A stretch of 64,000 bases of DNA from Candidatus Binatia bacterium (GTDB lineage Bacteria > Desulfobacterota > Binatia > UBA9968 > JAJDTQ01), in contig OY761465.1 in assembly GCA_963664535.1 (NCBI GenBank), positions 1,573,602-1,637,601 of the forward strand, in the 5' to 3' direction. The notes below the pieces were generated by a model. It worked only from the letters and a program-made list of their open reading frames with translations. It was not told the origin of the DNA and ran no database searches. Numbering within the stretch: position 1 is the stretch's first letter; each line of letters begins with the position of its first letter. Positions 738 through 64,000 of this stretch are shown piece after piece. The position numbers were made by a program, and so were the translations under genes.

Positions 738-789
738 TTGGTCGTTCTCCGGGACGACAACTTTGGTTCCCAACAATTACAAACCCCAA

Positions 790-850: not shown

Positions 851-878
851 TTAAGAATTGCAACAGAGAGACTCACAA

Positions 879-4945: not shown

Positions 4946-4989
4946 GCGGGCGCGCTTCTTACCGCGCCCCCTTTCCTCTGGATCCCGGA

Positions 4990-17994: not shown

Positions 17995-19029
17995 CTACTT
18001 TTTCGGCAACAGAGTCTTCTTCAACAGGGTCAACGTGGCGTCGTCCATGTCATAGAGCCCCTGCATCTTCTTCGCCACCCAGTTGCCGTCCTGCGGGTTC
18101 AACTCCACCTTCGACTTCTTGGCGGCCGCGACCAGCTCGGGGTCCTTCAAGGTATCCGCGAACGCCTTCTGGAGCGTCTTGACCCGGTCCGCGGGTACTC
18201 CGGGCGGCAGGCTGTAGGGCCGCGACAGGGCGCGGTAGACGTCAGCGGCCACCCCCAGGAGCTTCTTGCCGGTGTCACCCTTGGCCAAATCGAATGCCAC
18301 CCCCACATCCTGGAGGTCGGGGTGCTTGTCGGGGCCCACCTGGAGGATGGGCTTGACGTTGCCGCTTTCGATACCCTGGCTCCAGGTCGGCTTGATGGAC
18401 TGCCACGCCCAGCAGCCGCCGTCGATCTCGCCCTTTTCCGCCGCCAGCCGTATGAGCGCGGTACCGCCGTAACCCTCGATGATCTGTATCGGCAGGTCCG
18501 TCGCGGCCTTGATCAGCTTGGGCACGTCATCGGTGGTCGAGCCCGGACCGGTGGCGCCGATCTTGATCGGCCTCTTGGAGTCGAGCCACTCCTTGACGCT
18601 GTTGATGCCGCTGGCCTTGGTGAGCGCACAGGTGTTGTCGTCGGTAGACGGGGCGCCCAGCCAGTTGAATTTGCGCCCATCGAACTTGATGCCCTTCTTG
18701 CCGAGCACATGCTGCAGCACCAGCGGGCCGATCCAGTTGCCGATGGTCAGGCCGTCCGGTTTGGCCTTGGCGTAGATGTAGTTGGCGGCGATCATGCTGC
18801 CGGCGCCGGTCCGGTTCTGAACCACCGTTCTGGGGTTCCCGGGGACATTCTTGCCGAAGTGGCGGGCAATCAGCCGGGTGTAGGTATCGAAACCGCCGCC
18901 CGGAGAGAAACCGACCACGAAACGAATGGTCTTGCCCTTGAAGAAGTCGTCCGCTCCCATGGCGAGCGACGGAACCAACGCAAGGAAAAGCGCCGAAACC
19001 ATGACGGCACGTAAGATTCGACTGAACAT
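17995..19029 (-). CDS. TctC/Bug-family substrate-binding protein, paralog 2
   Basis: There is a signal peptide. PGGGFDTYTR and KPDGLTIGNW are present. Confidence 0.85.
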   Translation of the reverse strand: MFSRILRAVMVSALFLALVPSLAMGADDFFKGKTIRFVVGFSPGGGFDTYTRLIARHFGKNVPGNPRTVVQNRTGAGSMIAANYIYAKAKPDGLTIGNWIGPLVLQHVLGKKGIKFDGRKFNWLGAPSTDDNTCALTKASGINSVKEWLDSKRPIKIGATGPGSTTDDVPKLIKAATDLPIQIIEGYGGTALIRLAAEKGEIDGGCWAWQSIKPTWSQGIESGNVKPILQVGPDKHPDLQDVGVAFDLAKGDTGKKLLGVAADVYRALSRPYSLPPGVPADRVKTLQKAFADTLKDPELVAAAKKSKVELNPQDGNWVAKKMQGLYDMDDATLTLLKKTLLPKK

Positions 19030-27242: not shown

Positions 27243-28112
27243 TCACGTCCGGTACTTCTCGTCCAGGGCGTACTTCTCCTCGAGCCCCACGATGTCGTGG
27301 AAGTCGTCGAACGGCAGCAGCCGGTCCATGAGGGCCTCCGCGGTGCCGGCCTCCCGGAGGTTGGTGTAGTAGCTCTTGAGCGCCTGGGCCGCTGAATAGA
27401 GCGGACCCACGGGCCAGACGATGAGGGCGAAGCCCAGCTCCCCGAGCTCCGCCGGCGTCATCAGCGGCGTGACCCCACGTTCGATCATGTTGGCCACCAG
27501 CGGACCCGGCACGTTGCGGGCGATCTCCCGCATCTCCTCGCGGCTTTCCGGAGCTTCGATGAACACGGCGTCGGCGCCGTTCTCCTTGAAGGCGATGCCG
27601 CGCCGGATGGCCTCGTCGAGGCCCAGGGCTTGGCGCGCGTCGGTGCGGGCCACGATGAAGAGGTCCCCGTCAGCCTTGGTCGCCACCGCCGCATTGAGCT
27701 TCTTGAGGTACTCTTCCAGCGGCACCACCTGCTTGCCCCTCATGTGCCCGCAGCGCTTGGGCCACACCTGGTCCTCCAGGAACATGCCCGCCGCCCCGGC
27801 CCGCATCAGCTCGTTGACGGTACGGACCACGTTCACCGCGTTGCCGTAGCCGGTGTCCGAGTCCACGATGACCGGCGTCGGCACCGCGCCGCAGATGCGG
27901 TAGATGGTGCTCAGCATCTCGGTCTGCGTGAGGATGCCGAAGTCCGGCTCGCCCAGCATGGTCGCCGAGATGCCGTAGCCGGTGGTGAAGATGACGTCGA
28001 AGCCGGCGCGTTGGGCGATGCGCGCGCTCAGGGCATCGTACACCCCGGGCATGACCAGGGTTCCGTTCCGGTCGAGGGCTTCCTTGACTCTGCTCATTTG
28101 GACCTCCAGCAT
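27243..28112 (-). CDS. isocitrate lyase/PEP mutase family protein (PrpB/carboxyvinyl-carboxyphosphonate phosphorylmutase-like)
   Basis: The ICL/PEPM barrel signatures are VMPGVYDALSARIAQRAGFDVIFTTGYG and KRCGHMRGK. An alternative start is at 28097. Confidence 0.75.
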   Translation of the reverse strand: MLEVQMSRVKEALDRNGTLVMPGVYDALSARIAQRAGFDVIFTTGYGISATMLGEPDFGILTQTEMLSTIYRICGAVPTPVIVDSDTGYGNAVNVVRTVNELMRAGAAGMFLEDQVWPKRCGHMRGKQVVPLEEYLKKLNAAVATKADGDLFIVARTDARQALGLDEAIRRGIAFKENGADAVFIEAPESREEMREIARNVPGPLVANMIERGVTPLMTPAELGELGFALIVWPVGPLYSAAQALKSYYTNLREAGTAEALMDRLLPFDDFHDIVGLEEKYALDEKYRT

Positions 28113-28548
28113 GTTTGGTTTGAAGAGAGTGACCCGAACACCAAGCAGGACGCGAAGGAAGTCATCGTCTTTCAGAGTATCCTTCTGAACTGCACGGGAG
28201 TCGAGTCTATCTCATATAGTGACGCAAGACGATGCGCGACCGCACCATTGTAAAACAGGGCTCAACCCATCGCCGTGTGGAGAACTGCGCCATTGGTTCC
28301 AGATAACCGTCAATAAAATCGGTCGGAAACCCTCTGTTCGGATCACGACTACGTAACGCAGGCTCAATTCAAAGAATCTGCTGTCTCTGGGACATGAGGC
28401 AGGAACCTTGAACCGGGTGACCTCAATCAAGTATCTTGACATCCTAGGGACCGTAGGGCGGCGGTACGGAAGACAGGTACCCTTTGGAAAAGCAGAACAG
28501 GCGTGAAAGCCCTAGCCGGGCAACCTCGGTAAGAACAGGGAGAAGAGC

Positions 28549-31245
28549 TTGAGCACGGAAGATCCGTTGGTGACAGCGTTGAGCCTCTCGTCCGGAGCAG
28601 AATTTCAGAAATGCGCGCTCCAGATCAACCCTCGGCACTATTCAGGTACGTATCGCGGCCAGCAGGCAACGCTCGGCGATGACGAATACGTCAGCGCACT
28701 AATAGACAAGGCAATGGACCTCGGAATCACAGTACTGGCGGTAACGGATCACAATCACGTAGGAGGCGTGGATGCGATCAGAATCGCGGCGCAAGAGCAG
28801 AAAATTCACGTGTTTCCTGGTTTCGAGTTGTCATCGACCGAAGGTATCCACGTCCTTTGCCTTTATTCACCAGAAACCACAGAGGAACAACTAGGTCGTT
28901 TTCTCGGCGAGTTCGGCATTCGTGCCACTACGACGTCAAGTGACTTGTGCGACAAGTCTTTCTCCGAACTCCTCGCATGCGTGCATGATCAGGGAGGCAT
29001 TTCCATCGCGGCGCATGTCACACATGACAATGGGTTGCTGCGGACCCTCCAGGGACAGCCTCGGGTCCGTGCCTGGAAGGACGAAAACCTCTACGCCATC
29101 CAAATCCCCGGACCGGTCAACGACCTTCCGGACGACATACGGCCGATCGTTCAAAATAGGAATGGCGACTATTTCCGGGAATACGCACCCGAGCCCGACC
29201 TTGCCATAGCGACAGTTAACGCAAAGGATGTCGCGGCGCCAGACGACCTCGCTGACCCATCGGCTACTTGCTGGATCAAAATGTCCGAGGTCAGCATGGA
29301 AGGCCTGCGCCAAGCATTTCTCGATCCCGGGTCGCGAGTCCGGCTGAACAGCGATCCGGTGCCTGAGGAGCACTCTGAGCTTGTCGCCATGGGATGGCAA
29401 GGGGGCTTCCTGGACGGCACAATGTTCCACTTCAATCCAAATCTGAACGTCTTGGTGGGAGGTCGTGGTGCAGGCAAGTCAACGGTAATCGAAAGCTTGC
29501 GTTATGTACTCGGACTAGAACCGTTAGGTGAAGAGGCCCAATCGGGCCATGCAGGTATTCTCCGTAACGTCCTCCGTAATGGTACCAAGGTGTCTCTCCT
29601 GGTTCGTTGCCATCGCCCAGGGCCGCGAGACTACCGCATCGAACGCACCGTCCCTAATCCGCCGGTCGTACGCGATACTCAGACAGGCGAGGTGCTAAGC
29701 GTAGCGGCGACCAACATTTTTCCCGGTGTAGAGGTCTATGGGCAGCACGAGATTTCGGAACTCACAAAGAGTCCGGAAAAGCTGACCCGGTTGCTTGAGC
29801 GGTTTGTGGAGCGAGACGATTCCGTAGGCAACCAGAAGCGCGAACTGCACCGCGAACTGGAACGCTTGCGTAGTCGGATTCTCGCGGCTCGTAAGGAGCT
29901 CAGCCAGATAGGGGAAAGACTGGACGCTCTGCCAGGACTTGAGGGGACGCTACGGCGCTATCAGGAAGCGGGGTTGGAACAGGACCTGAAAGAACAAAGT
30001 CTTCTGGTACGGGAGGAGGGTGTCCTCGAAACCATACCCGAGCGCCTACAACCGTTGCGGTCCTGCTTGGATGGGTTGCAGCAGGAGTTACCGATTGACC
30101 GGACTTTCCTCTCCCCAAAAGCTCTGGAAGATCTGCCTGGGAAAGCGATCTTGGCTGGTGCCAATCAAGTGTTAGCGAAACTGAACGCCGATCTGGAGAA
30201 AGTGTTACCCGACTTCACTCGGGCACTCGACAAGGCCGAACAGGGTCTCCAAGGTGTCCATCGACAGTTCGGCGAGCGTAGGACCGCGGTGCAAGCAGCG
30301 TACGAGAAGAAGCTTCGGGAACTCCAGAAAGCCAGGATCGACGGTGAGGAGTTCATACGGCTCCGACGTCGGATAGAAGAGTTACGACCCCTCAAAGAAC
30401 GGCAAACGACTCTAGCTCGGATGGAGACGGACCAACAAGAACGACGCCGGAATCTGTTGGCTGAATGGGAGGACATTAAGGCAGCAGAGTTCCGGGCGCT
30501 GGAACGCGCCGGCAAACGTGTCACGCGGAAACTCGAAGGCCGTGTTCGTGTACGTGTCGAGTTTGGCGGAAACCGCGAGGCATTGTTCCAACTCCTCCGT
30601 GATGAGATAGGCGGACGACTGTCCGAGACGATCGACATTCTGCGACAGTCCGACAACTTGTCTCTCAGCGCTTTTGTAAAGGCTTGTCGCCAAGGTCCGG
30701 ACATTCTTCTCACGGAATTCGAAATCTCGGGTGTTCAAGCAGATCGTTTGGCTCAGGCCCCCGACGAGATTCTCATGCAGGTTGAAGAGCTTGACCTCCC
30801 GTCCATCACAAAGATCGAGCTGAACACGGCACCTCCTGACGAAAGGGAAAACTGGCAAGCGCTCGATCAGCTCTCCACTGGCCAAAAGGCAACTGCTGTA
30901 CTGTTGCTCTTGCTACTTGAGTCCGATGCACCACTCGTCGTGGATCAACCGGAGGATGATCTCGACAACCGCTTCATCACAGAAGGAGTTGTCCCGCGTA
31001 TGCGCGACGAGAAACAGCGTCGCCAGTTTCTTTTCTCGACTCATAACGCAAACATTCCAGTCCTCGGAGATGCCGAACTCATCCTAGGTCTCAGCGCATC
31101 GGGAGAAGCGGAAGAAGGGAACGCGAAGATTGCACCGGAACACATGGGTTCTATCGATGCTCAAGCTGTGAGAGAGCTTGTGGAAGAGTTGCTCGAAGGT
31201 GGCGAGGACGCGTTCAAGCGCCGGCGGCGCAAGTACGGATTCTAG
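28549..31245 (+). CDS. PHP-family phosphoesterase domain fused to an SMC/Rad50/RecN-like ABC ATPase with a long coiled coil (Ppl-like architecture)
   Basis: The N-terminus carries PHP motifs (AVTDHNHVGG, AAHVTHDNG). The ATPase part has Walker A GGRGAGKST, a ~300-aa Leu/Glu/Arg-rich coiled coil, signature LSTGQK, Walker B/D-loop VVDQPEDDLD and an H-loop FSTHN. It has a TTG start with a GGGAG RBS. GC is lower than the flanks. Confidence 0.7.
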   Translation: MSTEDPLVTALSLSSGAEFQKCALQINPRHYSGTYRGQQATLGDDEYVSALIDKAMDLGITVLAVTDHNHVGGVDAIRIAAQEQKIHVFPGFELSSTEGIHVLCLYSPETTEEQLGRFLGEFGIRATTTSSDLCDKSFSELLACVHDQGGISIAAHVTHDNGLLRTLQGQPRVRAWKDENLYAIQIPGPVNDLPDDIRPIVQNRNGDYFREYAPEPDLAIATVNAKDVAAPDDLADPSATCWIKMSEVSMEGLRQAFLDPGSRVRLNSDPVPEEHSELVAMGWQGGFLDGTMFHFNPNLNVLVGGRGAGKSTVIESLRYVLGLEPLGEEAQSGHAGILRNVLRNGTKVSLLVRCHRPGPRDYRIERTVPNPPVVRDTQTGEVLSVAATNIFPGVEVYGQHEISELTKSPEKLTRLLERFVERDDSVGNQKRELHRELERLRSRILAARKELSQIGERLDALPGLEGTLRRYQEAGLEQDLKEQSLLVREEGVLETIPERLQPLRSCLDGLQQELPIDRTFLSPKALEDLPGKAILAGANQVLAKLNADLEKVLPDFTRALDKAEQGLQGVHRQFGERRTAVQAAYEKKLRELQKARIDGEEFIRLRRRIEELRPLKERQTTLARMETDQQERRRNLLAEWEDIKAAEFRALERAGKRVTRKLEGRVRVRVEFGGNREALFQLLRDEIGGRLSETIDILRQSDNLSLSAFVKACRQGPDILLTEFEISGVQADRLAQAPDEILMQVEELDLPSITKIELNTAPPDERENWQALDQLSTGQKATAVLLLLLLESDAPLVVDQPEDDLDNRFITEGVVPRMRDEKQRRQFLFSTHNANIPVLGDAELILGLSASGEAEEGNAKIAPEHMGSIDAQAVRELVEELLEGGEDAFKRRRRKYGF

Positions 31246-31254
31246 GGCAACAAA

Positions 31255-32631
31255 GTGACGAAGACAGAGCTTCTGGAGCTGATTGCAAACGGCGAGAACT
31301 CGGGCGTGGACTTTAAGCGCGATGTAATTGACAACCGCGCGCTCGCGAAGGTCCTCGTGGCATTCGCCAACCTGCGGGGTGGACGCCTCCTCCTCGGGGT
31401 GGACGACGATGGAACCGTCCGCGGCCTTACGCGGCAAGATCCACGGTTGGAAACAGAAGAGGATGAGACTGGTCCGCACACGTACCAAGCCCTTGAGGAG
31501 TGGGTGATGCAGGCGTGTCGCGACAAGATCCGCCCCGAGATCATCCCCTACTTCGAAACCTTCCGAGAAGTCGCGCCTGGACGTGACGTGGCTGTCGTAC
31601 AAGTCGGTCGCGGGTGGGGTGTACACCACGTGTGGCACAATCAGCATCGCACCTACTACATCCGCGTCGGGACGTTGAGCCGTGAGGCTAGCCCGGAAGA
31701 ACTGGCGCGGATGTTTCAACAGCGAGGTGCCTTTCGCTTGGAACTACAACCGGTGTCAGGCACTTCGATCGACGACTTGGACCCTCGACGCCTTACTCAA
31801 TATTTTGCGGAGATACGAGAACAGCAAGTCCCGGCATCGAATCCACCTGAGGAGTGGCGTATCGAAACAACGGCATGGGCACGGAACGAGGACCAGAAAC
31901 ATTGGCGGGAACTTGTCGATCAGAGGGAACGAGATTGGTACCGTGAACAGGCAGCCGCATGGAAATCATTGCTCGTCAACACCGAGTTTCTCGCCGAAGA
32001 TGATCCGCAACCTGGGACCGTGGCCGGACTTATGTTGTTTGGTAGCAACCCCAGTCGATTCCTACCCCAAGCGAAGATTGACGCCGCCGCCTACTTCGGT
32101 TCGGTGAAAGACTATGCCGCAAAGGAACGGCGCACGCTGCGGGGACCGCTCGTCAGTTTGAAAGGTGTCGACGGTTCCGTGCTGGAGCCTGGCCTCGTGG
32201 AACAGGCAGTGGAGTTTGTCAGACGGAACATCCAGACGGTGCATCTGGAAGGGGGGATACGCCGCCAAGAACGGTGGGACTACCCGGTCGAGGTCGTTCG
32301 TGAGGTGATCGTCAACGCGGTCGTTCACCGCGATTATCTGCTGTCGAGTTCGGACATCGAACTCAGTGTCTATTCCGACCGGCTTGAGGTCATCTCACCC
32401 GGGCGCTTGGCGAACGGCATCACCACAGAGCGAATGCGAGTCGGATGCAGAAGCGCCCGCAACGAGCTGCTGAAAGACGCCATGCGAGACTACGGTTACC
32501 TCGAGCACATGGGTATGGGCGTACCACGAAAGATCATTCGGGGTATGCAGGAGCAGAACCGCACCGATCCCGACTTTATCGAGGACGACGAACGGTTCAC
32601 TGTACGATTGTGGAAGGATCCGCGGGCCTAG
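31255..32631 (+). CDS. COG2865-type protein: Schlafen-like AlbA_2 (divergent-AAA) N-domain plus a C-terminal HATPase_c_4/RecG-C-like domain
   Basis: The N-terminal motif is ENSGVDFKRDVIDNRALAKVLVAFANLRGGRLLLGVDDDGTV. The C-terminal motif is REVIVNAVVHRDYLLSSSDIELSVYSDRLEVISPGRL. It starts 9 nt after the PHP-ATPase gene. Confidence 0.65.
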   Translation: MTKTELLELIANGENSGVDFKRDVIDNRALAKVLVAFANLRGGRLLLGVDDDGTVRGLTRQDPRLETEEDETGPHTYQALEEWVMQACRDKIRPEIIPYFETFREVAPGRDVAVVQVGRGWGVHHVWHNQHRTYYIRVGTLSREASPEELARMFQQRGAFRLELQPVSGTSIDDLDPRRLTQYFAEIREQQVPASNPPEEWRIETTAWARNEDQKHWRELVDQRERDWYREQAAAWKSLLVNTEFLAEDDPQPGTVAGLMLFGSNPSRFLPQAKIDAAAYFGSVKDYAAKERRTLRGPLVSLKGVDGSVLEPGLVEQAVEFVRRNIQTVHLEGGIRRQERWDYPVEVVREVIVNAVVHRDYLLSSSDIELSVYSDRLEVISPGRLANGITTERMRVGCRSARNELLKDAMRDYGYLEHMGMGVPRKIIRGMQEQNRTDPDFIEDDERFTVRLWKDPRA

Positions 32632-32873
32632 GCGTTCCGAGGATGGTCACAGGCACGGCTGGACTTGAGAAGATCCAATACCGCCAATATTCAAACAACA
32701 GATTTGGAGCGGTTCTGAATCGAGACACAGGCCACGAATCTTCGACAACTCGCTACTGCGTGTCCTTCACCGTTGAAGCCAGGCGAGTTCCAAGTGAACA
32801 ATCGGGCTGAAGCCCCTGACACGACGACGAGCATCCCACGCTGGCCATACGATACGCGTGACCAGTTAATCCG

Positions 32874-33158
32874 CTACTCCGCGGGAATCTCCACGATCAC
32901 GTCGCCGAGCACCTTGGCGACGCAGCCCAGACGCTCGGCGGCATCCGCGCTGAGCATGGACAGCGTCAGCTCCTCATTGTCGTCCATGGGGCTCAGGTTG
33001 TTGTCTCCGGCGAGGATCTTCACCCGGTCCGTGCCGCAGATGGCCTCGGTGCAGTCGTGGCGAAGGGTGACGCCGTTCCGTATGGCCGCCACCAGGATGG
33101 TGGTGCCGTCGTCGACCTCGAAGCTCTGTCCCAGTGGCATGAAAGTGACTCTAGGCAT
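32874..33158 (-). CDS. small hypothetical protein, ferredoxin/beta-grasp-like fold with an incomplete Cys set
   Basis: The N-terminus (RVTFMPLGQSFEVDDGTTIL, HDCTEAIC) is 2Fe-2S-ferredoxin-like, but only three Cys are present. Confidence 0.35.
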   Translation of the reverse strand: MPRVTFMPLGQSFEVDDGTTILVAAIRNGVTLRHDCTEAICGTDRVKILAGDNNLSPMDDNEELTLSMLSADAAERLGCVAKVLGDVIVEIPAE

Positions 33159-41977: not shown

Positions 41978-43021
41978 ATGAAACCGTATCTCCGCTCCAT
42001 GCTCCGTGTAGCCTTGGCGACAGGCATCGCCGTGGTCGTCACGGCCGCGACCGCGGCGTCCGCCGCGGACTTCTACAAGGGCAAGACCATCCGCATCATC
42101 GTGGGCTCGGCTCCGGGCGGCGGCTTCGATACCTACGCGCGGCTGGTGGCCCGGCACCTCCCCAAGCACATACCGGGGGCCCCGAGGACCCTGGTGACCA
42201 GCATGACCGGGGCCGGCAACCTCATCGCCGCCAACTACATGTACAACAAGGCCAAGCCCGACGGCCTCACCATCGGCCACTGGGTGGGGACCCTGGTGCT
42301 GCAGCAGGTCCTGGGGAACAAGCGTGTCCAGTTCGATGCCCGGAAGTTCGAGTGGATCACCGTCCCCAAGCCCAGCTACACGGCCTGCATCGTGGCCAGG
42401 GACAGCGGCATCGCCAACATGGACCAGTGGCTCGCGGCCAAGAAACCGCTCAAGCTCGGCGGCATGGGACCGGGCAGCTCCATCTCGGACATTCCCCGGT
42501 TGCTGGAGAACATAACCGGGGTGCCGCTCCAACTGATCGAGGGCTATGGCGGCGCCGCCAGGATCCGTCTCGCCATCGAGAAGCGGGAGGTCATGGGCGG
42601 GTGCTGGAGTCCCGACGTCATCTTCTCGTACTGGCCGAAGCGGATCCCCGCCGGAGAGCTGAACTTCGTGATACAGGTGGGCGTCGGCAGACATCCCAGC
42701 TTCCCCAACGTCCCGAACATCCTGGAGTTTGCCAAGAACGACGCACAGCGGCAGTTGACGGGCGTGGTGGGCCGCAACGCCCACGAGATCCTGCGGGCCT
42801 TCTCGCTGCCTCCGGGCACCCCCAAGGACCGCGTGGAACTGCTGCGCAAGGCCTTCGCGGCCACCTTCAAGGACCCGGAGCTGCTGGCCGAGGCCAAGAA
42901 GTCCAGGCTCATCATCAACCCCATTCCCGGCACCCGGGTGGCTCAGGCGGTGAACGAGTTCTTCGAGCTCGACGCCGAGCTGATGGCCCGGTTGAGGGGC
43001 ATCCTGGTCCCGAAACAGTGA
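41978..43021 (+). CDS. TctC/Bug-family substrate-binding protein, paralog 3
   Basis: There is a signal peptide. PGGGFDTYAR and KPDGLTIGHW are present. An AAAGGAGG RBS lies upstream. Confidence 0.85.
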   Translation: MKPYLRSMLRVALATGIAVVVTAATAASAADFYKGKTIRIIVGSAPGGGFDTYARLVARHLPKHIPGAPRTLVTSMTGAGNLIAANYMYNKAKPDGLTIGHWVGTLVLQQVLGNKRVQFDARKFEWITVPKPSYTACIVARDSGIANMDQWLAAKKPLKLGGMGPGSSISDIPRLLENITGVPLQLIEGYGGAARIRLAIEKREVMGGCWSPDVIFSYWPKRIPAGELNFVIQVGVGRHPSFPNVPNILEFAKNDAQRQLTGVVGRNAHEILRAFSLPPGTPKDRVELLRKAFAATFKDPELLAEAKKSRLIINPIPGTRVAQAVNEFFELDAELMARLRGILVPKQ

Positions 43022-52281: not shown

Positions 52282-52304
52282 AAGGGAGGTTTCAAACCCT
52301 CCCG
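52282..52304 (+). terminator. hairpin GGGAGGtttcaaaCCCTCCC after the lectin gene; its right arm begins the ~1.4 kb duplicated segment
   Basis: The stem is 6 bp. The second copy at 62292 lacks the left arm. Confidence 0.3.
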
Positions 52305-52532
52305 TCATTCAAGAGCAGCCATGCTCAGGCATACGCTTGTATCGCCAATAAACATGTGATTTAAGCAGGTTAAGATCGTTTGATACTGCCAAACCACGCC
52401 GTCTCCCACACTCCACTGCGCTCCGATTCCTTCTCTCGTGTTGATTGTGGGGTTGACTATTTCCTGGTCCACGCCTATCATACCCGTGTTTTCCGGTCTC
52501 CCAGCCGATACCCGAATTCGCGAGGTAACCCC

Positions 52533-53795
52533 ATGCAACACGCCGCAAAACTCGTCGCCAAAGTCAAGCTCATGCTGACCAAGAGAACGGTAGACGCTCT
52601 TGAGTCCGAAGACAAGCCCTGGATCGCCTGGGATGACAAGCTGACCGGATTCGGTGTGCGCGTCCACCCCTCCGGAGCCAAGTCCTTCGTCGTGAACTAC
52701 CGTGCCGGCAACGGCGGGCGCAAGGCGCCCAACAAGCGCGTGGTGGTGGGCCGTGTCGGGCGGGTTACCCCGGACCAGGCCAGGCGTCTGGCCCAGGAAC
52801 TCCTGGGGCGCGTGGCCGCGGGAAACGACCCCGCGGGGGAGCGCGCAGAGGCGCGTTCTGTGCCGACCCTGGGAGAGGCGTGCAAGGACTACATGGAGTC
52901 GGGCCATGGGCGCGCGGCCAGCACCGAGCGGGGCTATCGCCGGTATACGGCCTTGTATCTCGGCGACTGGCTGTCCCGCCCACTGGATGCCATCACCCGC
53001 CGGGAGGTGGAGAACCGGTTCAGGTTCCTTACCGAGCGCCACGGAGAGATGCCGGCCAACCAGTGCCTGTCGTTCCTTCGGTCGGTGTACCGCAGGCCCT
53101 GCGTGGACTACGAGGGTCTGCGCAATCCGGTGGAGCAGTGGCTTGCGGCCGGAGGGCGCTACCACCGGAAGACACGGCGGCGGATATCGTCTCCGGCCGA
53201 GGTGCTGCCGTGCTGGCGGAAGGGGCTGGAGGCGGAGGTGGGCAATGCGGTTCACCGGGACGTGGTTCTGTTTGGGCTCTACACGGGGATGCGGCTTGGA
53301 GAGGTCGTGCCGCTTCGGTGGGAGGATGTAGACCTGGATGCCGGGCTTTTCCGGGTGGAGGAGACCAAGACCGGGGCGCCGCTCGAGTTGCCGGTGACGC
53401 GGCAGCTTGGAGAGATACTGGCGCGGCGGCGGGCGGAGGGCCACACGGTTGGGGAGGAGCTTCGCGTGTGGGTGTTTCCGTCGCCGATGAGCGATTCCGG
53501 GCACGTGGAGGAACTCTACCGACACTACGGGGCCATCGGGCGAGCAGGCGGAGCGAAGTTCTGGTTTCACGCGTTGCGGAACTGCTTCATCACGGTGGCG
53601 GAGCGGGAGTTGATGCTGCCGCGGTCGTTGACGAAGCGTCTGGTGAACCATGCCCGGCCCGGTGACGTGACCGAGGGCTACGCCGCGGACTGGACGGTGG
53701 AGCAGTTGCGAGAGCCTGCGCAACGGGTCGCGAACCGCATCGATGAGTTGATGGCCCGACAGGTGCCGACCGTGCCTCACTCGCTTGGGAAGTGA
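52533..53795 (+). CDS. int: tyrosine-type site-specific integrase, P4-like with N-terminal DUF4102 arm-binding domain
   Basis: The DUF4102 region is DKLTGFGVRVHPSGAKSFVVNYR. The catalytic residues are present (R in GMRLGEV, HALRN, and Y in the GYAA tail). Confidence 0.85.
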   Translation: MQHAAKLVAKVKLMLTKRTVDALESEDKPWIAWDDKLTGFGVRVHPSGAKSFVVNYRAGNGGRKAPNKRVVVGRVGRVTPDQARRLAQELLGRVAAGNDPAGERAEARSVPTLGEACKDYMESGHGRAASTERGYRRYTALYLGDWLSRPLDAITRREVENRFRFLTERHGEMPANQCLSFLRSVYRRPCVDYEGLRNPVEQWLAAGGRYHRKTRRRISSPAEVLPCWRKGLEAEVGNAVHRDVVLFGLYTGMRLGEVVPLRWEDVDLDAGLFRVEETKTGAPLELPVTRQLGEILARRRAEGHTVGEELRVWVFPSPMSDSGHVEELYRHYGAIGRAGGAKFWFHALRNCFITVAERELMLPRSLTKRLVNHARPGDVTEGYAADWTVEQLREPAQRVANRIDELMARQVPTVPHSLGK

Positions 53796-54016
53796 CATGC
53801 GCGCGACGAGGCACATCCAACGGCTCCCGGAACAGCAGGTTGTGTCAAACAGGACCCTGGCGGCGTGATCCTTTACACCGGAATACACCTTACCTCCGCC
53901 GCCTCCCTGTCCCACAACCAGGACCACTTCATGATCCAACAAGAGTCTGGCGGCGGAAGGCGGTGGTTGCGCAGAGAGCCGTGGGTCAAGGGTGCGAATG
54001 GCGCCACCAGCATCGG

Positions 54017-54034
54017 GGATGCGTGGGGTGTGAG
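54017..54034. repeat. 18-nt direct repeat GGATGCGTGGGGTGTGAG (copy 1 of 2; second at 58304-58321), a candidate att core
   Basis: The match is exact over 18 nt and extends to a 28-nt near-match (GCATCsssGGATGCGTGGGGTGTGAG). It flanks the nuclease-like gene plus the two tandem integrases. Confidence 0.45.
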
Positions 54035-54259
54035 GAGAAAAGACTCCGCATGGAGTCAGATGGGCGATTGTGCCCTGCACACCGTCATTGGGTGGAACAG
54101 CCTGCGCCGCAAGAGTTTGGAGCCTTCGCGGCGATTGAGCGAGACGACCGGGCCGCAGTGTCCGAGCGAGTTCCGCATCGCCTTCCAGGCAACAGAGGTA
54201 ACAGACCGTACCGTACGGTGCAAGCACGAAGCGAGGCGTTTCACACACCGCGCACCGAA

Positions 54260-54480
54260 GGTTCGGTGTTACCGTCCGTCAACGGACGGGTTGCACTTGT
54301 TACCGCGAATCGTCAAGACGAGGTTCACATGTTACCGGAGACTTGAGTAGCGTGGTGAAGTGACCGGTGCACGAGGTCGTGCATGGTCCGGTGCACACGT
54401 TTGGAGTTACCGCGCATGAACCTGACGGTTAGGTTCTCGTTACCCGTCCTCACACTGCAAGCGGTCGTGCACTGCACGAT
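54260..54480. repeat. repeat- and palindrome-rich non-coding region (4x GTTACCG, palindromes CCGTCCGTcaaCGGACGG and CGTGCACTGCACG)
   Basis: GTTACCG occurs at 54268, 54298, 54332 and 54406. Several short perfect palindromes are present. There is no credible ORF across 53.8-54.66 kb. Confidence 0.45.
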
Positions 54481-54663
54481 GCAGACCGGCCTGCGGACAC
54501 CACTTGCATAAGCAACACCAGTTCTTCCCACGTCACTTGATGGCTTGATGGCGACTTACCCCTGATGTACCGACGTACCGCGGTGGAGGGATCGGCTTAG
54601 GCGGCGCTGGTGGCGCTTGCGGTGCCGGAGCGAGAAAAGTGGACCGCGACGGTCACGTTTTCG

Positions 54664-55536
54664 TTACTTCTCCGCACCGTGTACGCGGTCGTGGACGCCC
54701 GCTGCGAGAAGGTCTTCGATCACTTCTTTGAGTTCGACCACCGCAAGTGGACATTCTGGCCAATTGTGCTGCCAGCAGACGATCAAATCGCACTTCGCCG
54801 GGTCGTGTCCATGGTCCAAGAAGGTACGAGACATAAACTCAAACTCGATCCGCACACGCTGCCATCGGTCTTTCTTTCGATCGACGAGGCGCTTCGCCTC
54901 GCAGTCGGGGAAGGAGGCGTGTACAGCTTCGACGAGGAAGCCGAGTTCACGGCTGACCATGCCAAAGAGAAAGACGACTCCTAGCTCGTTGATCGGAGCG
55001 TGCCTCAGTCCGCGAAAGTCGATTGGGGCGCCGAACTGCGGTCCGCCACTGTTGCCCAGATGGACGTAAGGTTCCGGCGAGACAGTCTTGGTCTGTTTCA
55101 CTGGCGGTTGTCCTGATTCGTGCGATCCATCAAGTTGGCTCAACAGCGGAGACTGTGGCTCGTTTCGAACGAGCCATGCTCTGTACCTAGCCAGTAGACC
55201 ACTTCGGCCGCCGAAGCGGCGGCTAACGACTCCGTCTGAAATCAGACTGTGATGGTTGAACTGGTTCAACGTAGGGATCCGCCCAAGGCCCGATGCCACC
55301 GAATGGAACTCGCTCAGAAGTTCGTCATCCTCCAGGCGCTCGCGATGCCTGGGATGTTTCGGGATGCCAGCGCGCTCCTTGAGTTCCGACCACCCACCAT
55401 CAGGGAAGAGACGGTAGATTTGACGCTGGCTGATCCCGGAGATGCGCTCGAAGTCTGATCGCGACAGCGGTTGCCCTTGCTTCTCACTTGCGTGTTGGGC
55501 TTCCTGGATCAGATCGTTCTGTGTGAGCTGGCTCAT
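54664..55536 (-). CDS. hypothetical protein with an N-terminal HTH-like region and a C-terminal DUF559/Vsr-like (PD-(D/E)XK) endonuclease-like domain
   Basis: The C-terminus (FPDCEAKRL ... RVRIEFEF ... HGHD ... DLIVCWQHNW) parallels the DUF559 pattern (DFaClEAKL ... vEvDG.qH ... GwrVlRfwn). Confidence 0.45.
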   Translation of the reverse strand: MSQLTQNDLIQEAQHASEKQGQPLSRSDFERISGISQRQIYRLFPDGGWSELKERAGIPKHPRHRERLEDDELLSEFHSVASGLGRIPTLNQFNHHSLISDGVVSRRFGGRSGLLARYRAWLVRNEPQSPLLSQLDGSHESGQPPVKQTKTVSPEPYVHLGNSGGPQFGAPIDFRGLRHAPINELGVVFLFGMVSRELGFLVEAVHASFPDCEAKRLVDRKKDRWQRVRIEFEFMSRTFLDHGHDPAKCDLIVCWQHNWPECPLAVVELKEVIEDLLAAGVHDRVHGAEK

Positions 55537-55717: not shown

Positions 55718-56977
55718 TTAATCGGATAGCTGGTGCGACGGATCGAGACCAGGAGGAACTGGTGGACCGGAGAGTCTGGCCTGTGGTTCAATCTGCGAGG
55801 GCGGCGTCTCGGCCCGAAAGCCCATGGCGCAGGCGATGACTGCAGCCGCCTGCTTGGCCGCACCCTGTAGCGCGATATCGTCGAGGTGGGCGTAGATGGC
55901 GGTTGTGGCGCGCTTGCGGTGTCCGAGCAGGCGGCCCACCGTGGTCAGCCCTACGCCGTTCATGACACCCTGGGAGGCGTAGGTGTGGCGGGTGTCGTGG
56001 ATTCGGACGCCTTGCAACCCGGCTTCCTGGCGAATCGCGCACCAGAAGCTGTAGAGCCTGCCTGGGGTGAGATCCTCGGGGAACACCCGCCCGTCGCCCT
56101 CCAGGCGGGGAAGGGCCGCGAGCACCTTTACCGCTTGCGGTCCGAGCCACAGGGTGCGCGGTCCGGTCTTGGAGTCCGGGAGGCGGACGCTTGCGCCGTC
56201 CCCGGACAGCTTCCCGATCTCGTCCCACCGGAGGTTCAACACCTCGGAGAGCCGCGCGCCGGTGAGGGTGAGGAGGTGGAGCGCAGCCACGGGCCAGGGA
56301 CGCTTCGCACGGCATGCATCAAGGACTGCGCCAAGGCGTTCCAGTTCTTCGCGGGTGAGATGGCGCGCGACCGGTCTTCTGGGGTTCATGACGATGTTGG
56401 CGCAGGGGTCGGGAGCGTCCTCGGACACCTCGCCCCACTGGCGCGCCGTGCGCAGCATGGCGCGGAGGATCTCGAAGGCGCGGTTGGCCGCGCCGGGCCG
56501 GTCGACGCTGGCGGAGTCGAACCACGCGGAGACCCGCGCATGGTCGATGCGATCGAGCCGCAGTCGGCCGAAGGCGGGCATGAGCCTCTGCCGCATGTAG
56601 CTGTCGTGGGCTTTGAGCGAGGACGGCTTGCAGCGGCTCCTGAGCCGCTCGCGGTAGCGGGCGGCGAAGTCGCCGAAGAGCGCCGGCCTGGGCCTGTGGC
56701 CGGGCACCGTGGCGTCGCCTGCCCAGATACGGGCGAGCACTTTGGCAGCCTCCCTTCGCGCATCGGCGAGGGGGGTCTCTGGGAAGCGCCCGAGGGTGAG
56801 CTTGCGCATCCGGCCCCGCACGCGGGTCTGGACGATGAAGGAGCGCACGCCCGAGGGCTGCACCCTGACTCCGAAGTGAGCGAGCGCGCCGTCCCAGAGC
56901 GTGTACTCGGTCCGCCTCGGCTTGGCGGCTGCAATGGCGCTAACGGTCAACGGCTTCTTGCCCTGCCTACGATCCAT
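55718..56977 (-). CDS. tyrosine-type integrase, P4-like (DUF4102 N-domain), downstream member of a tandem pair
   Basis: The DUF4102 region is WDGALAHFGVRVQPSGVRSFIVQ. The catalytic residues are present (R in GARLSEV, HDTRHT, and Y in AIYAHL). A GGAGG RBS lies upstream. Confidence 0.85.
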   Translation of the reverse strand: MDRRQGKKPLTVSAIAAAKPRRTEYTLWDGALAHFGVRVQPSGVRSFIVQTRVRGRMRKLTLGRFPETPLADARREAAKVLARIWAGDATVPGHRPRPALFGDFAARYRERLRSRCKPSSLKAHDSYMRQRLMPAFGRLRLDRIDHARVSAWFDSASVDRPGAANRAFEILRAMLRTARQWGEVSEDAPDPCANIVMNPRRPVARHLTREELERLGAVLDACRAKRPWPVAALHLLTLTGARLSEVLNLRWDEIGKLSGDGASVRLPDSKTGPRTLWLGPQAVKVLAALPRLEGDGRVFPEDLTPGRLYSFWCAIRQEAGLQGVRIHDTRHTYASQGVMNGVGLTTVGRLLGHRKRATTAIYAHLDDIALQGAAKQAAAVIACAMGFRAETPPSQIEPQARLSGPPVPPGLDPSHQLSD

Positions 56978-58115
56978 GACGCCCCTCCTTCCTGCTTCCG
57001 GTCATCGCCGCCTCAACGATGCCGCCGATGCGGCCCGCAGCCTCCCGGACGTGGTCGTCGGCAAGGTGAGCATAGCGGTCGGTGGAGGCGATGTCCGCAT
57101 GGCCGAGCAAGCGGCCCACCGTATAGAGGTCGATGCGGCTCATGACCGCGTGGGAGGCCAGAGTATGACGGAAGTCGTGTATGCGCACGTCCTCCAGACC
57201 CGCCAGCCTTCGCAGCTTCTGCCAGCGAAGCCCGAGATCGTTCATCGGCCCGGAGCCCGTTGTGTTGGGAAAGACGTAGCGTGAGACACGCGGCACTCCG
57301 GAGAGCACCGCTCGGGCGGGTGGCGGAAGCTGGATGGTCTTCGGGCCGGTCTTCGAATCCGGCAACAGCGCCCGGGCGCCGCGTATCCAGTCCCACCGAA
57401 GGCCGGTGATCTCGGACGACCGCGCGCCGGTGAACAGCAGGAGACGGATCACGGCGACGGCCTGACTGTCCTCGGCATGGTCGAGCACGAAGCCGAGGCG
57501 TTTCAACTCCTCCACGGAGAGGAACCGCTCCCTGGCCCCAGTCCTGTAGCGGCGCATGTTACGGCAGGGGTTGGAGCCCTGGGGGCGAATGTCCCACAGT
57601 TCGGCCTGGGCGAGCATGACGGAGAGCACGGGCAGCGCTCGGTTGGCGGTGGCGGGAGAGCTGCTCAGGGAATCGAACCAGCGCTGCACGTCGGCGCGGG
57701 AGATTTCGGGGACGCGCATGAAGCCGAAGAAGGGCAGGAGTTGGTTCTTGAGCACGGAGCTGTTGCTCTGGCGGGTGGAGGGCTTCCAGCGCCTGGACTG
57801 GCGGCGCATGAATTCGTCCGCGAAGTCCTGGAACAGGGGTCCGGCCTTGTGCTCGGCCGTGGCGGCGTCGATAGCGGCGACGGCTCGATCACGCGCCTGG
57901 GCGGCGGTCAGTTCAGCGGTCGTGCCGAGGGTGAGATTGACCGCGCTCGGGGCTCGCTTCACGCGGACGAAGAAGGTCCTCGAATCGTCGGCTGCGATCT
58001 TGAGGCCGAAGGCGGGCAGGGTGTGATCGAGGACGATGAGCGGGCGCTTCCGGTGCCTGGGCTCGGCGAACTTTCGGTTGATGGTTCTTTCATTGAGATT
58101 TGCGAAGATGCGCAT
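56967..58115 (-). CDS. tyrosine-type integrase, P4-like (DUF4102 N-domain), upstream member of the tandem pair; overlaps the next gene by 11 nt
   Basis: The DUF4102 region is LPAFGLKIAADDSRTFFVRV. The catalytic residues are present (R in GARSSEI, HDFRHT, and Y in DRYAHL). The start is MRIFANL at 58115, with a GGGAGG RBS. The track ORF extends to 58160. Confidence 0.8.
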   Translation of the reverse strand: MRIFANLNERTINRKFAEPRHRKRPLIVLDHTLPAFGLKIAADDSRTFFVRVKRAPSAVNLTLGTTAELTAAQARDRAVAAIDAATAEHKAGPLFQDFADEFMRRQSRRWKPSTRQSNSSVLKNQLLPFFGFMRVPEISRADVQRWFDSLSSSPATANRALPVLSVMLAQAELWDIRPQGSNPCRNMRRYRTGARERFLSVEELKRLGFVLDHAEDSQAVAVIRLLLFTGARSSEITGLRWDWIRGARALLPDSKTGPKTIQLPPPARAVLSGVPRVSRYVFPNTTGSGPMNDLGLRWQKLRRLAGLEDVRIHDFRHTLASHAVMSRIDLYTVGRLLGHADIASTDRYAHLADDHVREAAGRIGGIVEAAMTGSRKEGRHGS

Positions 58116-58303
58116 GTGGCTGCCTCCCATAGTTGTTCCCTCGAATGCCACCGGTTCCAAGGAAACAACGGCGGCGGTTCACGGAAGGAGATGCAGCCCG
58201 TGCAGGGACAGGGGGGTGAGTGGCCGTGACGCCCTAACGCAGCGTTAAAGCGGAAGAAATCGTCCGTATGGCTGGTCGGGAAAGTCTCGCTCAAGGCATC
58301 CCG

Positions 58304-58321
58304 GATGCGTGGGGTGTGAGA
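58304..58321. repeat. 18-nt direct repeat GGATGCGTGGGGTGTGAG (copy 2 of 2)
   Basis: It is identical to 54017-54034. It lies ~190 nt upstream of the tandem-integrase start. Confidence 0.45.
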
Positions 58322-58808
58322 ACCCTTAACGGGCGCCAGCCCGTCCAAGAAGGGGGATTGGCCGCTGGGCTACGATGTCGGGGAGGAGTGCATGGACGGT
58401 CAGCAAGGCAAAGCCGCCGTGGCGATTGAACGGTGCCGGTGTCGCGTTGCACGGGACATTGCGATTGGGCGCTGCACCGCCACGGGTACAGAGTCGGACA
58501 CGCTGCCGGGGGCGTGCCGGAGCAATTATGTCCGACGACGGGAACGACGCTCACCCGTGTCGGCATCACCGCGGACGGCGTGATGGTGGAAGATGACGAC
58601 TCGGCATCTCGCGGTTGAGATCGGCACGAGCACAGGGACGCCTGCTCATGCTTGTAGTTGTCGTCCCTGTGCTGTCCCGGCAGCGTGACAACCACGGACA
58701 CCGGCGACACGCGGGCATCCCATCCACAGGTGATTGACGCCATTGACACGCCGTGCCTGGTCGCTGTACAAATCTGGATGAATGGCAACACTCAACGGAG
58801 GCTCGGCG

Positions 58809-59970: not shown

Positions 59971-61124
59971 GTGTCCTGTCCGATTAATTAGTTGAAGAAC
60001 AATGGAGTGTGTCGTACCATGGGAAGAAAGGACAGGAGGGCACCATGGCACGACCCCCAGCGGCGATCGTTTTGAGCGAGGAGGAGAAGGCGGAGCTAGA
60101 AAGATGGAGTCGGCGGCGCAATACGCGAGCGGGTCTTCATCTACGAGCGGGCGTGGTTTTGGATTGCGCGCGAGGTTACACCGGGGAGGAGGTGGCGAAG
60201 CGACACCACACGAGCCAGCAGACGGTGTCGAAGTGGCGGGGGCGGTTCGCCCGAGAGCGACTGGCGGGACTGTCCGATGCGGTGCGAAGCGGCCAGCCGC
60301 GCAAGCACAACGACGTACGGGTGCAGGAAGTGTTGGACGCGACACTGAATCGACGGCCGAAGCATGCCACGCACTGGAGCGTTCGGAGTTTATCCGAGGA
60401 CCTGGATGTGCCACGGGATTTCGTTCATCGTGTATGGCGGGCATTCGGGCTCAAACCTCACTTGTCTCGGAACTTCAAGCTATCCACCGATCCGCACTTC
60501 ATCGACAAGGTGCGGGACGTGGTGGGTCTTTATCTGAATCCGCCGGACAACGCGCTGGTGTTGTGCGTGGATGAGAAAAGCCAGATTCAGGCATTGGACC
60601 GTACCCAACCCGGTTTACCGCTGAACTACGGCACACCCGAGACCCGGACCCATGACTATCGGCGCTATGGCACCACCACGCTGTTCGCCGCACTGGAGGT
60701 GGCTACGGGTCGAGTGGTGGGCAAGCTGCACCGCCGGCACAGAAGCCAAGAGTTCACCGCTTTCTTGCGCCACATCGACTCGCAGGTCCCGGCCGCCTTG
60801 GAAGTCCACCTCATTCTCGACAACTACGGCACCCACAAGACCACCCAAGTCAAGAACTGGCTGTTGCGACACCCCCGATTCCACTGTCATTTCATCCCCA
60901 CCTACAGTTCCTGGATGAACTTGGTGGAGCGCTTCTTCGCAACCTTGACCGAACACCAGTTACGCCGCGGCACCTACCGCTCCGTGGTCGCTCTGGAGAA
61001 AGCCATACGAAATTACCTCGACCTGCACAATCAACATCCCAAGCCGTTTCGTTGGACCAAGTCCGCTGACGCCATCATTGACTCTGTCACCAGTGTTATT
61101 AAACGAATTAACCAGACACCACAC
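59971..61124 (+). mobile_element. IS630-family insertion sequence (1154 bp) with imperfect ~21-bp TIRs and a TA target-site duplication
   Basis: The left end is GTGTCCTGTCCGATTAATTAG. The reverse complement of the right end is GTGTGGTGTCTGGTTAATTCG (16/21 match). TA flanks both ends at 59969-70 and 61125-26. It contains a single DDE transposase gene. Confidence 0.7.
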
Positions 61125-61127
61125 TAG
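60045..61127 (+). CDS. IS630-family transposase (HTH + DDE)
   Basis: The N-terminal HTH is [21 protein letters not shown]. The DDE region spans [14 protein letters not shown] ... [10 protein letters not shown] ... [19 protein letters not shown] precedes the ATG at 60045. The stop lies within the right TIR. Confidence 0.85.
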
Positions 61128-62291: not shown

Positions 62292-63672
62292 GTTTCAAAC
62301 CCTCCCGTCATTCAAGAGCAGCCATGCTCAGGCATACGCGAGTCCGAAGACAAGCCTTGGATCGCCTGGGATGACAAGCTGACCGGATTCGGTGTGCGCG
62401 TCCACCCCTCCGGAGCCAAGTCCTTCGTCGTGAACTACCGTGCCGGCAACGGCGGGCGCAAGGCGCCCAACAAGCGCGTGGTGGTGGGCCGTGTCGGGCG
62501 GGTTACCCCGGACCAGGCCAGGCGTCTGGCCCAGGAACTCCTGGGGCGCGTGGCCGCGGGAGACGACCCCGCGGGGGAGCGCGCAGAGGCGCGTTTTGTG
62601 CCGACCCTGGGAGAGGCGTGCAAGGACTACATGGAGTCGGGCCATGGGCGCGCGGCCAGCACCGAACGGGGCTATCGCCGGTATACGGCCTTGTATCTCG
62701 GCGACTGGCTGTCCCGCCCACTGGATGCCATCACCCGCCGGGAGGTGGAGAACCGGTTCAGGTTCCTTACCGAGCGCCACGGAGAGATGCCGGCCAACCA
62801 GTGCCTGTCGTTCCTTCGGTCGGTGTACCGCAGGCCCTGCGTGGACTACGAGGGTCTGCGCAATCCGGTGGAGCAGTGGCTTGCGGCCGGAGGGCGCTAC
62901 CACCGGAAGACACGGCGGCGGATATCGTCTCCGGCCGAGGTGCTGCCGTGCTGGCGGAAGGGGCTGGAGGCGGAGGTGGGCAATGCGGTTCACCGGGACG
63001 TGGTTCTGTTCGGGCTCTACACGGGGATGCGGCTTGGAGAGGTCGTGCCGCTTCGGTGGGAGGATGTAGACCTGGATGCCGGGCTTTTCCGGGTGGAGGA
63101 GACCAAGACCGGGGTGCCGCTCGAGTTGCCGGTGACGCGGCAGCTTGGAGAGATACTGGCGCGGCGGCGGGCGGAGGGCCACACGGTTGGGGAGGAGCTT
63201 CGCGTGTGGGTGTTTCCGTCGCCGATGAGCGATTCCGGGCACGTGGAGGAACTCTACCGACACTACGGGGCCATCGGGCGAGCAGGCGGAGCGAAGTTCT
63301 GGTTTCACGCGTTGCGGAACTGCTTCATCACCGTGGCGGAGCGGGAGTTGATGCTGCCGCGGTCGTTGACGAAGCGTCTGGTGAACCATGCCCGGCCCGG
63401 TGACGTGACCGAGGGCTACGCCGCGGACTGGACGGTGGAGCAGTTGCGGGAGCCTGCGCAACGGGTCGCAACCCGCATCGATGAGTTGATGGCCTGACAG
63501 GTGCCCACCGTACCTCACTCGCCGGGGAAGTGACATGCGCGCGACGAGGCACATCCAACGGCTCCCGGAACAGCAGGTTGTGTCAAACAGGACCCTGGCG
63601 GCGTGATCCTTTACACCGGAATACACCTTAACTCCGCCGCCTCCCTGTCCTACAAACCAGGACCACCTCACG
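62292..63672 (+). repeat. segmental direct repeat of 52290-53930 (integrase region), ~98% identical, with a ~263-nt internal deletion
   Basis: The block 62292-62339 equals 52290-52337. From 62340 onward the sequence matches 52603 onward with scattered mismatches. Similarity ends near 63672/53930. Confidence 0.8.
62340..63497 (+). pseudogene. 5'-truncated, nonsense-mutated duplicate of the P4-like integrase gene
   Basis: It lacks the start codon and the first ~23 codons of the 52533 gene. It has a premature TGA (CGA->TGA) at 63495-63497 that removes the last 11 codons. Confidence 0.7.
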
Positions 63673-64000
63673 TAAAACTCCCCCAAATCCAGCCCGTCCA
63701 CCAGGTCGCTTACGTGGTGCGCCAAATGCCCCGCAGGTACCCACTCCGCCAAATCCGGCGGCATCAACAGCTTCTGCCCAGGTTCATACCCTCGATAGCT
63801 CGTTGGCACTCCCCTCTCCTTCCGCTCCTTGTCTCCTCCCGCTCCTCTTTATACTTTCTCCCTTGCCCGCTTTTCTACGGCGCAGACTCCTAGTTCCGGT
63901 ATGGTTATTATAAATGCAGTAGTTCGCGATTATTGCGAAAATCCGTCGGTTCATCAACTATCGACTTCTGTTGCTGTGATTGTCCCAATTCGCGTTTTCT

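Follow-up and report, generated by a model that had tools for sequence, protein, structure and literature searches.

Two overlapping arm-binding tyrosine integrases that apparently serve as a joint recombination module in a family of small mobile islands

Why should two intact tyrosine integrase genes stand in tandem, sharing the nucleotides at their junction? The question is raised by a locus of Candidatus Binatia bacterium contig OY761465.1, within the 64-kb stretch analysed here as a whole (the window), in which two genes on the minus strand, named IntA and IntB below, overlap by 11 nt. An initial reading made from the letters of the DNA (the sequence-only reading) had described this arrangement and taken it to imply a heteromeric or sequentially acting integrase pair, and both the tandem order and the overlap are present as it claimed. 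Comparison with related loci suggests that the pair is the recombination module of a small integrative element, in which IntA and IntB would act jointly, most simply as a mixed tetramer on the core of the recombination site, a reading to which we give a probability of about 0.6. The genes concerned are:

56967–58115, minus strand: IntA, a tyrosine integrase of 382 amino acids; domains: arm-binding (P4-type, divergent), core-binding (SAM-like) and catalytic.
55718–56977, minus strand: IntB, a tyrosine integrase of 419 amino acids; domains: arm-binding (a clear DUF4102) and catalytic.
56967–56977, minus strand: coding overlap of IntA and IntB, 11 nt ATGGATCGTAG, the IntB start lying within the last IntA codons.

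The IntB ATG occupies 56977–56975 and the IntA stop codon TAG 56969–56967. IntA starts at the ATG at 58115 (protein MRI...), as do all of its homologues, with the mechanical list of open reading frames beginning the same frame at TTG 58160. Each gene has its own ribosome-binding site, as had been proposed, with a Shine-Dalgarno sequence GGGAGG (58128–58123) placed 8 nt before the IntA ATG, and GGAGG at ~56989–56985, within the 3′ end of IntA, serving IntB. The catalytic domain PF00589 of Pfam is matched over its cut-off by both proteins (65.1 bits for IntA and 55.8 bits for IntB), and the full catalytic sets described by the sequence-only reading are borne out by alignment to the P2 integrase (5c6k), which places the motifs TGAR, SKTG, HDxRH, LGH and YAH, and gives the residues R232, K255, H313, R316, H339 and Tyr348 (Y348) in IntA, and R242, K270, H327, R330, H353 and Tyr362 (Y362) in IntB. 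This R-K-H-R-H-Y set is invariant or nearly so in 120 IntA and 120 IntB homologues. Past residue ~390 the C-terminal tail of IntB is variable and proline-rich.

The further claim that both proteins carry DUF4102 holds in full for IntB only. The corresponding Pfam model, PF13356 (Arm-DNA-bind_3, cut-off 27 bits), scores 50.2 bits against IntB, which also matches the P4-like arm-binding domain structure 3ju0 by sequence, but 20.2 bits against IntA, for which the assignment comes from the fold. The IntA N-terminus is alignable with that of IntB, and in a structure model of IntA, with a predicted local distance difference test score (pLDDT) of ~80–90 over residues 1–190, the N-terminal domain resembles the P4-like arm-binding domains 3rmp, 3jtz and 3ju0 (template modelling (TM) scores of 0.73, 0.76 and 0.62 respectively, probability 0.99–1.0). 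The catalytic half of the model was poor and was left out of the structural comparison. At the level of the modelled fold IntA is therefore assigned to the P4-like/IntSXT arm-binding integrases, its Pfam score alone being below the cut-off.

The pair was sought in other genomes from both sides. One genome per species was scanned with IntA, yielding 185 relatives, from which 79 loci were kept (denoted L001 and so on), with ~50 metagenome-assembled genomes represented. IntB lies directly downstream in ~70 of the 79, the exceptions being truncated or interrupted copies, and an independent metagenome scan that started from IntB found IntA directly upstream in every close IntB locus with upstream DNA. 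The ordered overlapping pair IntA→IntB is present in ~90 fetched loci from ~50 uncultured genomes of at least five phyla, and each protein has hundreds to thousands of relatives at ~70% identity, many of them on equally long contigs in both match lists. In 35 cases the two genes share a 4-nt ATGA and in 21 they share 11 nt, the Shine-Dalgarno sequence always falling within IntA, and the recurrence of such a junction in dozens of independent loci is far beyond chance. The shortest shared block, of ~2.5–2.7 kb, consists of IntA and IntB only, and no third conserved gene follows the pair in the shared blocks of the copies compared; an extra, N-terminally truncated integrase right after IntB is found in L031 and L032, with the other copies lacking it. 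Taken together, the sequences indicate that IntA and IntB function as a single unit and serve a site-specific integrative element as its recombination module.

As to whether the two are recent paralogues or distinct lineages, the phylogeny shows distinct and old lineages, with an identity of 39% between IntA and IntB against ~70% within each family, and with distant pairs (35–50% identity, L003 and L019) keeping an A-like gene first and a B-like gene second. The pairwise divergences of IntA and IntB are correlated (r = 0.89), a value reached by none of 2000 Mantel permutations, and the ratio of nonsynonymous to synonymous substitution rates (dN/dS) lies at 0.12–0.58, mostly 0.15–0.4, for both genes in 12 pairwise comparisons, which points to purifying selection. 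IntA and IntB are thus old paralogues that have been inherited together as distinct lineages, with no recent duplication, and their intact active sites and the purifying selection upon them predict that both integrases are functional. A simple decayed duplicate, the outcome that the sequence-only reading had linked to inactivating substitutions, is ruled out by the intact catalytic sets and low dN/dS of both genes.

Two proteins of the representative library, P0242 (552 amino acids) and P0245 (623 amino acids), are single chains with two integrase-like units, both of them closer to IntA. These chains, which may be natural fusions, were considered as a sign of IntA–IntB interaction and dropped, both units being IntA-like and possibly artefacts of gene calling.

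What element does the pair belong to? In the window it covers 4.3 kb of the minus strand (58320–54010), has the pair at its left end, and comprises, in order, the left junction, a left arm of ~200 nt, IntA, IntB, one cargo gene, a right arm of ~450 nt and the right junction. Its non-coding parts are:

58296–58320, minus strand: left junction (attL-like), CTCACACCCCACGCATCCGGGATGC, one copy of a 25-nt direct repeat.
58116–58295, minus strand: left arm and IntA leader, conserved non-coding DNA with GTTTCC/GGGAAC motifs and the IntA Shine-Dalgarno sequence (from an alignment of eight left ends).
54035–54482, minus strand: right-end R module, the candidate P arm, conserved non-coding DNA with five direct repeats and a terminal hairpin.
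54010–54034, minus strand: right junction (attR-like), CTCACACCCCACGCATCCCCGATGC, the other copy of the 25-nt direct repeat.

The two junction repeats (58320–58296 and 54034–54010) match at 23 of 25 positions and share an identical block of 18 nt, CTCACACCCCACGCATCC. Element-specific sequence starts with ACACCCC at 58318, and in nearly all loci a left boundary of the form ACACC(C/T)NACGCA precedes the IntA ATG by 203–205 nt, a point at which copies 93–99% identical to one another give way to unrelated flanks. The motifs of the left arm read GTTACC/GGTAAC in relatives. The right end was compared with reference to L031, and the flank families were defined by an nhmmer profile and blastn. The R module lies 3.6 kb downstream of the pair in the window and, by the nhmmer profile, 3.3–10.7 kb downstream in ten other loci, and that of the window is 80–87% identical to the right-end segments of L082, L083 and L085. 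Its clustered repeats, GCGGTAAC of the form (G/C)GGTAAC, are found at 54445–54439, 54412–54406, 54337–54331, 54305–54299 and 54274–54268, with a spacing of 33/67/32/31 nt that is kept in divergent elements, the second gap measuring 75 nt in the window. Seven elements carry five such phased GCGGTAAC repeats in the right arm, and related motifs lie in the left arm; the repeats are candidate arm sites. The module ends in a GC hairpin, GACTCCATGCGGAGTC (54057–54042), of terminator-like form, followed by T-rich TTTTCTCCTC (whole stretch 54057–54035), directly after which the core ACACCCCACGC recurs, as it does after the R module in L001, L016, L031, L064, L082 and L085. Indels break the reading frames of the R module and leave no conserved open reading frame, and no Rfam family matches it in the window or in five further loci. 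Neither a tRNA or tmRNA target gene within the 64-kb window nor terminal inverted repeats at the element ends in the repeat search of the window were found. The anatomy matches that of a long-armed element of the lambda/P4 type in its integrated state.

Paired stems flank the presumed point of exchange. The palindrome GCATC-CGG-GATGC of the window left junction belongs to a GCAYC-N3-GRTGC palindrome placed 9 nt to the right of the crossover, whose 5-bp stem is perfect in 54 of 63 distinct ends with at least six sequence variants (0 of 2000 shuffles), and a second covarying stem is formed by the hairpin ~10 nt to the left of the crossover. They may act as inverted repeats bound by protein, as a terminator together with an operator, or as a substrate that folds.

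The DNA to the left of the element raises a question of its own, with the flank of the window element listed as follows:

58321–58450, minus strand: left flank of the window element, like a distal R module, with TTCAATCGCCACGGCGGC, hairpin ACGGGCTGGCGCCCGT and TTAAGGGTTCTC.

This flank may be the relic of an earlier related element or a preferred landing site. Likewise, 43 of 69 distinct left flanks resemble the distal R module of a related element in having the CTCAAKCGCCGC signature, a hairpin and ..TC before the boundary, with the CTCAAKCGCCGC signature present in only 3.7% of random 110-nt windows. The left flank of L065 holds a full arm-repeat array, yet few loci have a second integrase pair in the 10 kb upstream. 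Either elements accrete in tandem beside resident or relic ones, or the arm of the family mimics a preferred landing site.

The segment between IntB and the R module varies from element to element. In the window it holds a single gene:

54664–55536, minus strand: cargo gene of 290 amino acids, with two HNH_repeat (PF18780) units at the N-terminus and a C-terminal half without a family match.

This neighbour had been called DUF559-like in the sequence-only reading, a label that is replaced by the Pfam match to HNH_repeat, and the gene has no match in PADLOC, NCBIfam or PDB sequences. A survey for other loci combining the overlapping pair with a gene of this kind had been proposed there; the pair does recur, but no homologue of the cargo gene is present in ~170 fetched loci, so that the trio is not conserved and the cargo is variable. 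Other elements carry HigB/HigA and an Eco57I-type enzyme (L001), a HEPN protein (L082), two type II restriction-modification systems (L064), a type IIG enzyme (L014), or HTH, PIN and YAcAr proteins (L016). From their gene content, these elements appear to be small mobile islands of one family, with defence genes (restriction-modification, toxin-antitoxin) as frequent cargo.

Several further observations were made around the cargo and the ends of the elements. A short palindrome, GACCGCGACGGTC (54642–54654), terminator-like on both strands, lies just past the stop codon of the window cargo gene. A Gabija-like pair (OLD-TOPRIM ATPase and UvrD-type helicase) stands just beyond the right end in L082 and L083, with an Rfam match to a group II intron nearby (L082 15064–19033 and 19334–19408; L083 6199–10168). 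In L084 (277–2007 and 4199–6046) a DarT and Macro-domain pair (DarTG-like) lies directly upstream of the left end, and IntB is split by the insertion of an IS4-type transposase.

Is the unit that bears the pair mobile? An Alphaproteobacteria genome, isolate 0756efc7, contains 12 copies on five replicons or contigs (L026, L027, L030–L036, L067, L073 and L080), and another genome has at least 6. Two loci of one genome share a block of 2994 nt at 99.9% identity in different flanks, and the copies of L012 and L016, on Mb-scale chromosomes of Alphaproteobacteria and Candidatus Binatia, have a DNA identity of 95%. Decayed copies and copies interrupted by insertion sequences (IS) also occur, with the IntB of L033 cut at codon ~360, just before the catalytic tyrosine, by an insertion or rearrangement. 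The sharp left boundary, the near-identical copies in unrelated flanks, the multiple copies per genome and the spread across phyla all indicate that the pair-bearing unit is mobile. In isolate 0756efc7, several copies adjoin SSB and YAcAr genes and IS elements.

The host labels include many Alphaproteobacteria, as well as Gammaproteobacteria, Candidatus Binatia, Bryobacterales, Rhodothermales and Pedosphaera. The close metagenome matches come mainly from the sponge metagenomes of Aplysina aerophoba (MKWU) and Sarcotragus foetidus (LXNI), and several bin names, in our reading of them, likewise suggest that the family resides mostly in marine sponge or coral microbiomes. In a library of 1.84 billion proteins, one 50%-identity cluster takes in every full-length close relative of IntA, which fits a young, spreading family. 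Among plasmids of cultured bacteria (PLSDB) the best relatives are below 47% identity, with the two that were checked being single integrase genes, and no close relative was found among viral contigs (IMG/VR). A search of the literature found no description of a tandem DUF4102 pair, which is not proof of absence, and the two-integrase islands are apparently a family that is widespread and undescribed in the searchable literature.

Which known systems come closest? The P4-like/IntSXT integrases have the same architecture of arm-binding, SAM-like core-binding and catalytic domains, and their islands likewise have the integrase gene at one end, direct repeats at the junctions and a long site with repeated arm-type motifs. 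Such systems have one integrase, usually with a separate small excisionase, whereas the present islands have two paralogues that are always together and overlapping, no conserved excisionase and no tRNA or tmRNA target. A working model for IntA and IntB is offered by XerC and XerD, two paralogous tyrosine recombinases that act as a heterotetramer on an asymmetric core and perform one pair of strand exchanges each. However, the Xer proteins lack arm-binding domains, act on dif in chromosome dimer resolution, are not encoded by the element that they move, and are usually not the products of adjacent overlapping genes; the NCBIfam Xer models score 46–57 bits against IntA and IntB, compared with cut-offs of 330–335, and the integron integrase model TIGR02249 scores 31–34 bits, compared with a cut-off of 265.

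The kinship with recombinase-in-trio (RIT) elements and Tn554 brought up by the sequence-only reading is not upheld, the recombinases of those elements lacking an arm-binding domain and having a third partner. RIT elements consist of three adjacent recombinases, RitA, RitB and RitC, whose subgroups are classed as ‘simple’, that is, without an arm-binding domain. They share with the present islands a tight and often overlapping recombinase array, a compact, multi-copy and cross-taxon occurrence, and a mobility inferred from distribution, and differ in having three ‘simple’ recombinases in place of two arm-binding ones, the ends here being direct repeats of the core. Tn554 encodes TnpA, an oversized TnpB (~630 amino acids) and a small TnpC, a description that sets it apart from elements with an IntA of 382 and an IntB of 419 amino acids and no conserved third gene. 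The SE (strand-biased circularizing integrative) and GInt elements have four essential genes (intA-tfp-intB-srap or ginABCD), including one for a non-catalytic recombinase-like protein, placed between the two integrases or after them, and one for a small fourth protein, and end in short imperfect inverted repeats. Tn554, SE and GInt resemble the islands in requiring two catalytic tyrosine recombinases, in having a target preference and variable cargo, and in lacking a mobilisation system; in contrast to SE and GInt, the islands have no gene between the integrases or conserved after them, and possess integrases of ordinary size with arm-binding domains, direct-repeat ends and a long arm. The bipartite module (BIM) of Cupriavidus is likewise a two-gene module with a tyrosine recombinase, and was rejected as a match on the ground that its second gene encodes no recombinase, being a conserved protein of unknown function listed as SMC-domain. 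RIT, Tn554, SE/GInt and XerCD are analogues of the present islands, not relatives.

How would such a pair work? On the joint action favoured here, IntA and IntB would be made together, with IntB translationally coupled via the 11-nt overlap, and would form a mixed tetramer on a core without inverted symmetry, each protein reading one side and carrying out one pair of strand exchanges. The arm-binding domains would hold the GCGGTAAC repeats and so assemble the complex, as in lambda or P4. Since no other gene or excisionase is conserved in the element, the pair itself may supply integration, excision and the control of directionality alone, in place of an excisionase. We infer the heteromer, the arm-site role of the repeats and the exact crossover point. 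A bolder version, in which the mixed tetramer is obligate and combines a XerC/XerD-style split of strand exchange with lambda/P4-style arm control and no excisionase, so defining a new class of islands that shuttles restriction-modification and toxin-antitoxin cargo between phyla in sponge microbiomes, is advanced tentatively and is, in our judgement, somewhat doubtful as a whole.

Several of the same observations could be accommodated by a division of labour without a heteromer, for example with one integrase integrating and the other excising, or with one moving the element and the other resolving arrays or exchanging cargo at R-core sites. Both active sites are intact and under selection, no excisionase is conserved in the element, elements often lie beside R-like modules, as expected with frequent formation and resolution of arrays, and mosaic copies occur in which blocks of 99.9% identity adjoin blocks of 92%. 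We nevertheless regard this scheme as unlikely, with translational coupling and tight co-evolution fitting a stoichiometric complex at least as well, and with a single kind of core and of arm repeat found rather than two sets of sites. It is more improbable still that one integrase is catalytic and the other is an architectural or regulatory paralogue setting directionality, like Tfp or GinC of SE and GInt. The known multi-recombinase elements do have non-catalytic recombinase-like partners, the arm-binding domain of IntA is divergent and below the Pfam cut-off, and the arm-repeat-like motifs just upstream of the IntA start could serve autoregulation; however, Tfp and GinC have lost the RHRY motif, whereas in the IntA and IntB families alike all six catalytic residues vary little or not at all among the 240 homologues, and a purely architectural protein is disfavoured for this reason. 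Finally, the two genes might be chance neighbours, nested or adjacent islands, or a recent duplicate in decay, given that the region is a mosaic of mobile DNA with an IS630 transposase, IS fragments and a third DUF4102 integrase that is also present as a truncated copy, and that tandem accretion of islands is common. This is refuted, its likelihood being next to nil, by the ordered overlapping pair in ~90 loci and ~50 genomes, by the 39% identity of IntA and IntB, and by purifying selection on both genes and their parallel phylogenies; furthermore, there can be no att-like site between IntA and IntB because the genes overlap.

Some points weigh against a jointly acting pair on a lambda/P4-type site. 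No clear pair of half-sites could be assigned in the core, and covarying stems on both sides of the crossover could mean another, structure-dependent mechanism. The R-like look of 43 of the 69 left flanks obscures the true primary target, the shortest copies lack a sharp right boundary, and the taxonomic labels on which the spread across phyla is read are those of metagenome bins.

The element is itself set in a region rich in other mobile DNA, with the last 12 kb of the window forming a mosaic. A perfect direct repeat of 48 nt (52289–52336 and 62292–62339) bounds a unit of ~10 kb inside which the IntA/IntB element lies. A third DUF4102 integrase, Int3 (52530–53795, plus strand), is 27% identical to IntB, and has a second copy at 62340–63670, which is 98.6% identical, lacks 265 bp (52337–52601) that include the start codon, and is thus 5′-truncated and joined to the 48-nt repeat. 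The Int3 copies and the repeat suggest that islands of another integrase family lie here in tandem or nested. The truncated copy was considered as an empty site and rejected, the sequences diverging after 63670. Additionally, an IS630-family transposase with DDE_3 and HTH domains is encoded at 60009–61127 (plus strand), and an N-terminal fragment resembling an IS1182/DUF772-type transposase (~63660–63809, minus strand) is cut by the truncated Int3 copy. Elsewhere in the window, positions 1–5000 and 28000–33000 have a G+C content of 0.54–0.61, compared with ~0.67 around them, and may be further acquired regions, and an inverted repeat of 272 nt with 77% identity (18678–18948 and 42068–42338) probably represents paralogous gene segments.

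To our knowledge, the well-studied arm-binding integrases (lambda, P4, SXT and similar) are all homotetramers helped by a separate excisionase, and the known elements with two or three recombinases (Tn554, RIT, SE, GInt) are all without arm domains, and how they work has yet to be settled. If arm-binding integrases do form an obligate pair that co-evolves, site recognition and directionality would be achieved in a new way, and the candidate sites are well delimited: the core, the five phased repeats of the arm, and the catalytic tyrosine of each protein. Genome engineering could also make use of orthogonal two-protein integrases, whose sites are long and specific. Sponge and coral microbiomes have been noted for high loads of mobile elements, the vehicles of which are poorly known, and the family described here appears to be an active vehicle that moves restriction-modification and toxin-antitoxin genes between distant phyla in these microbiomes.

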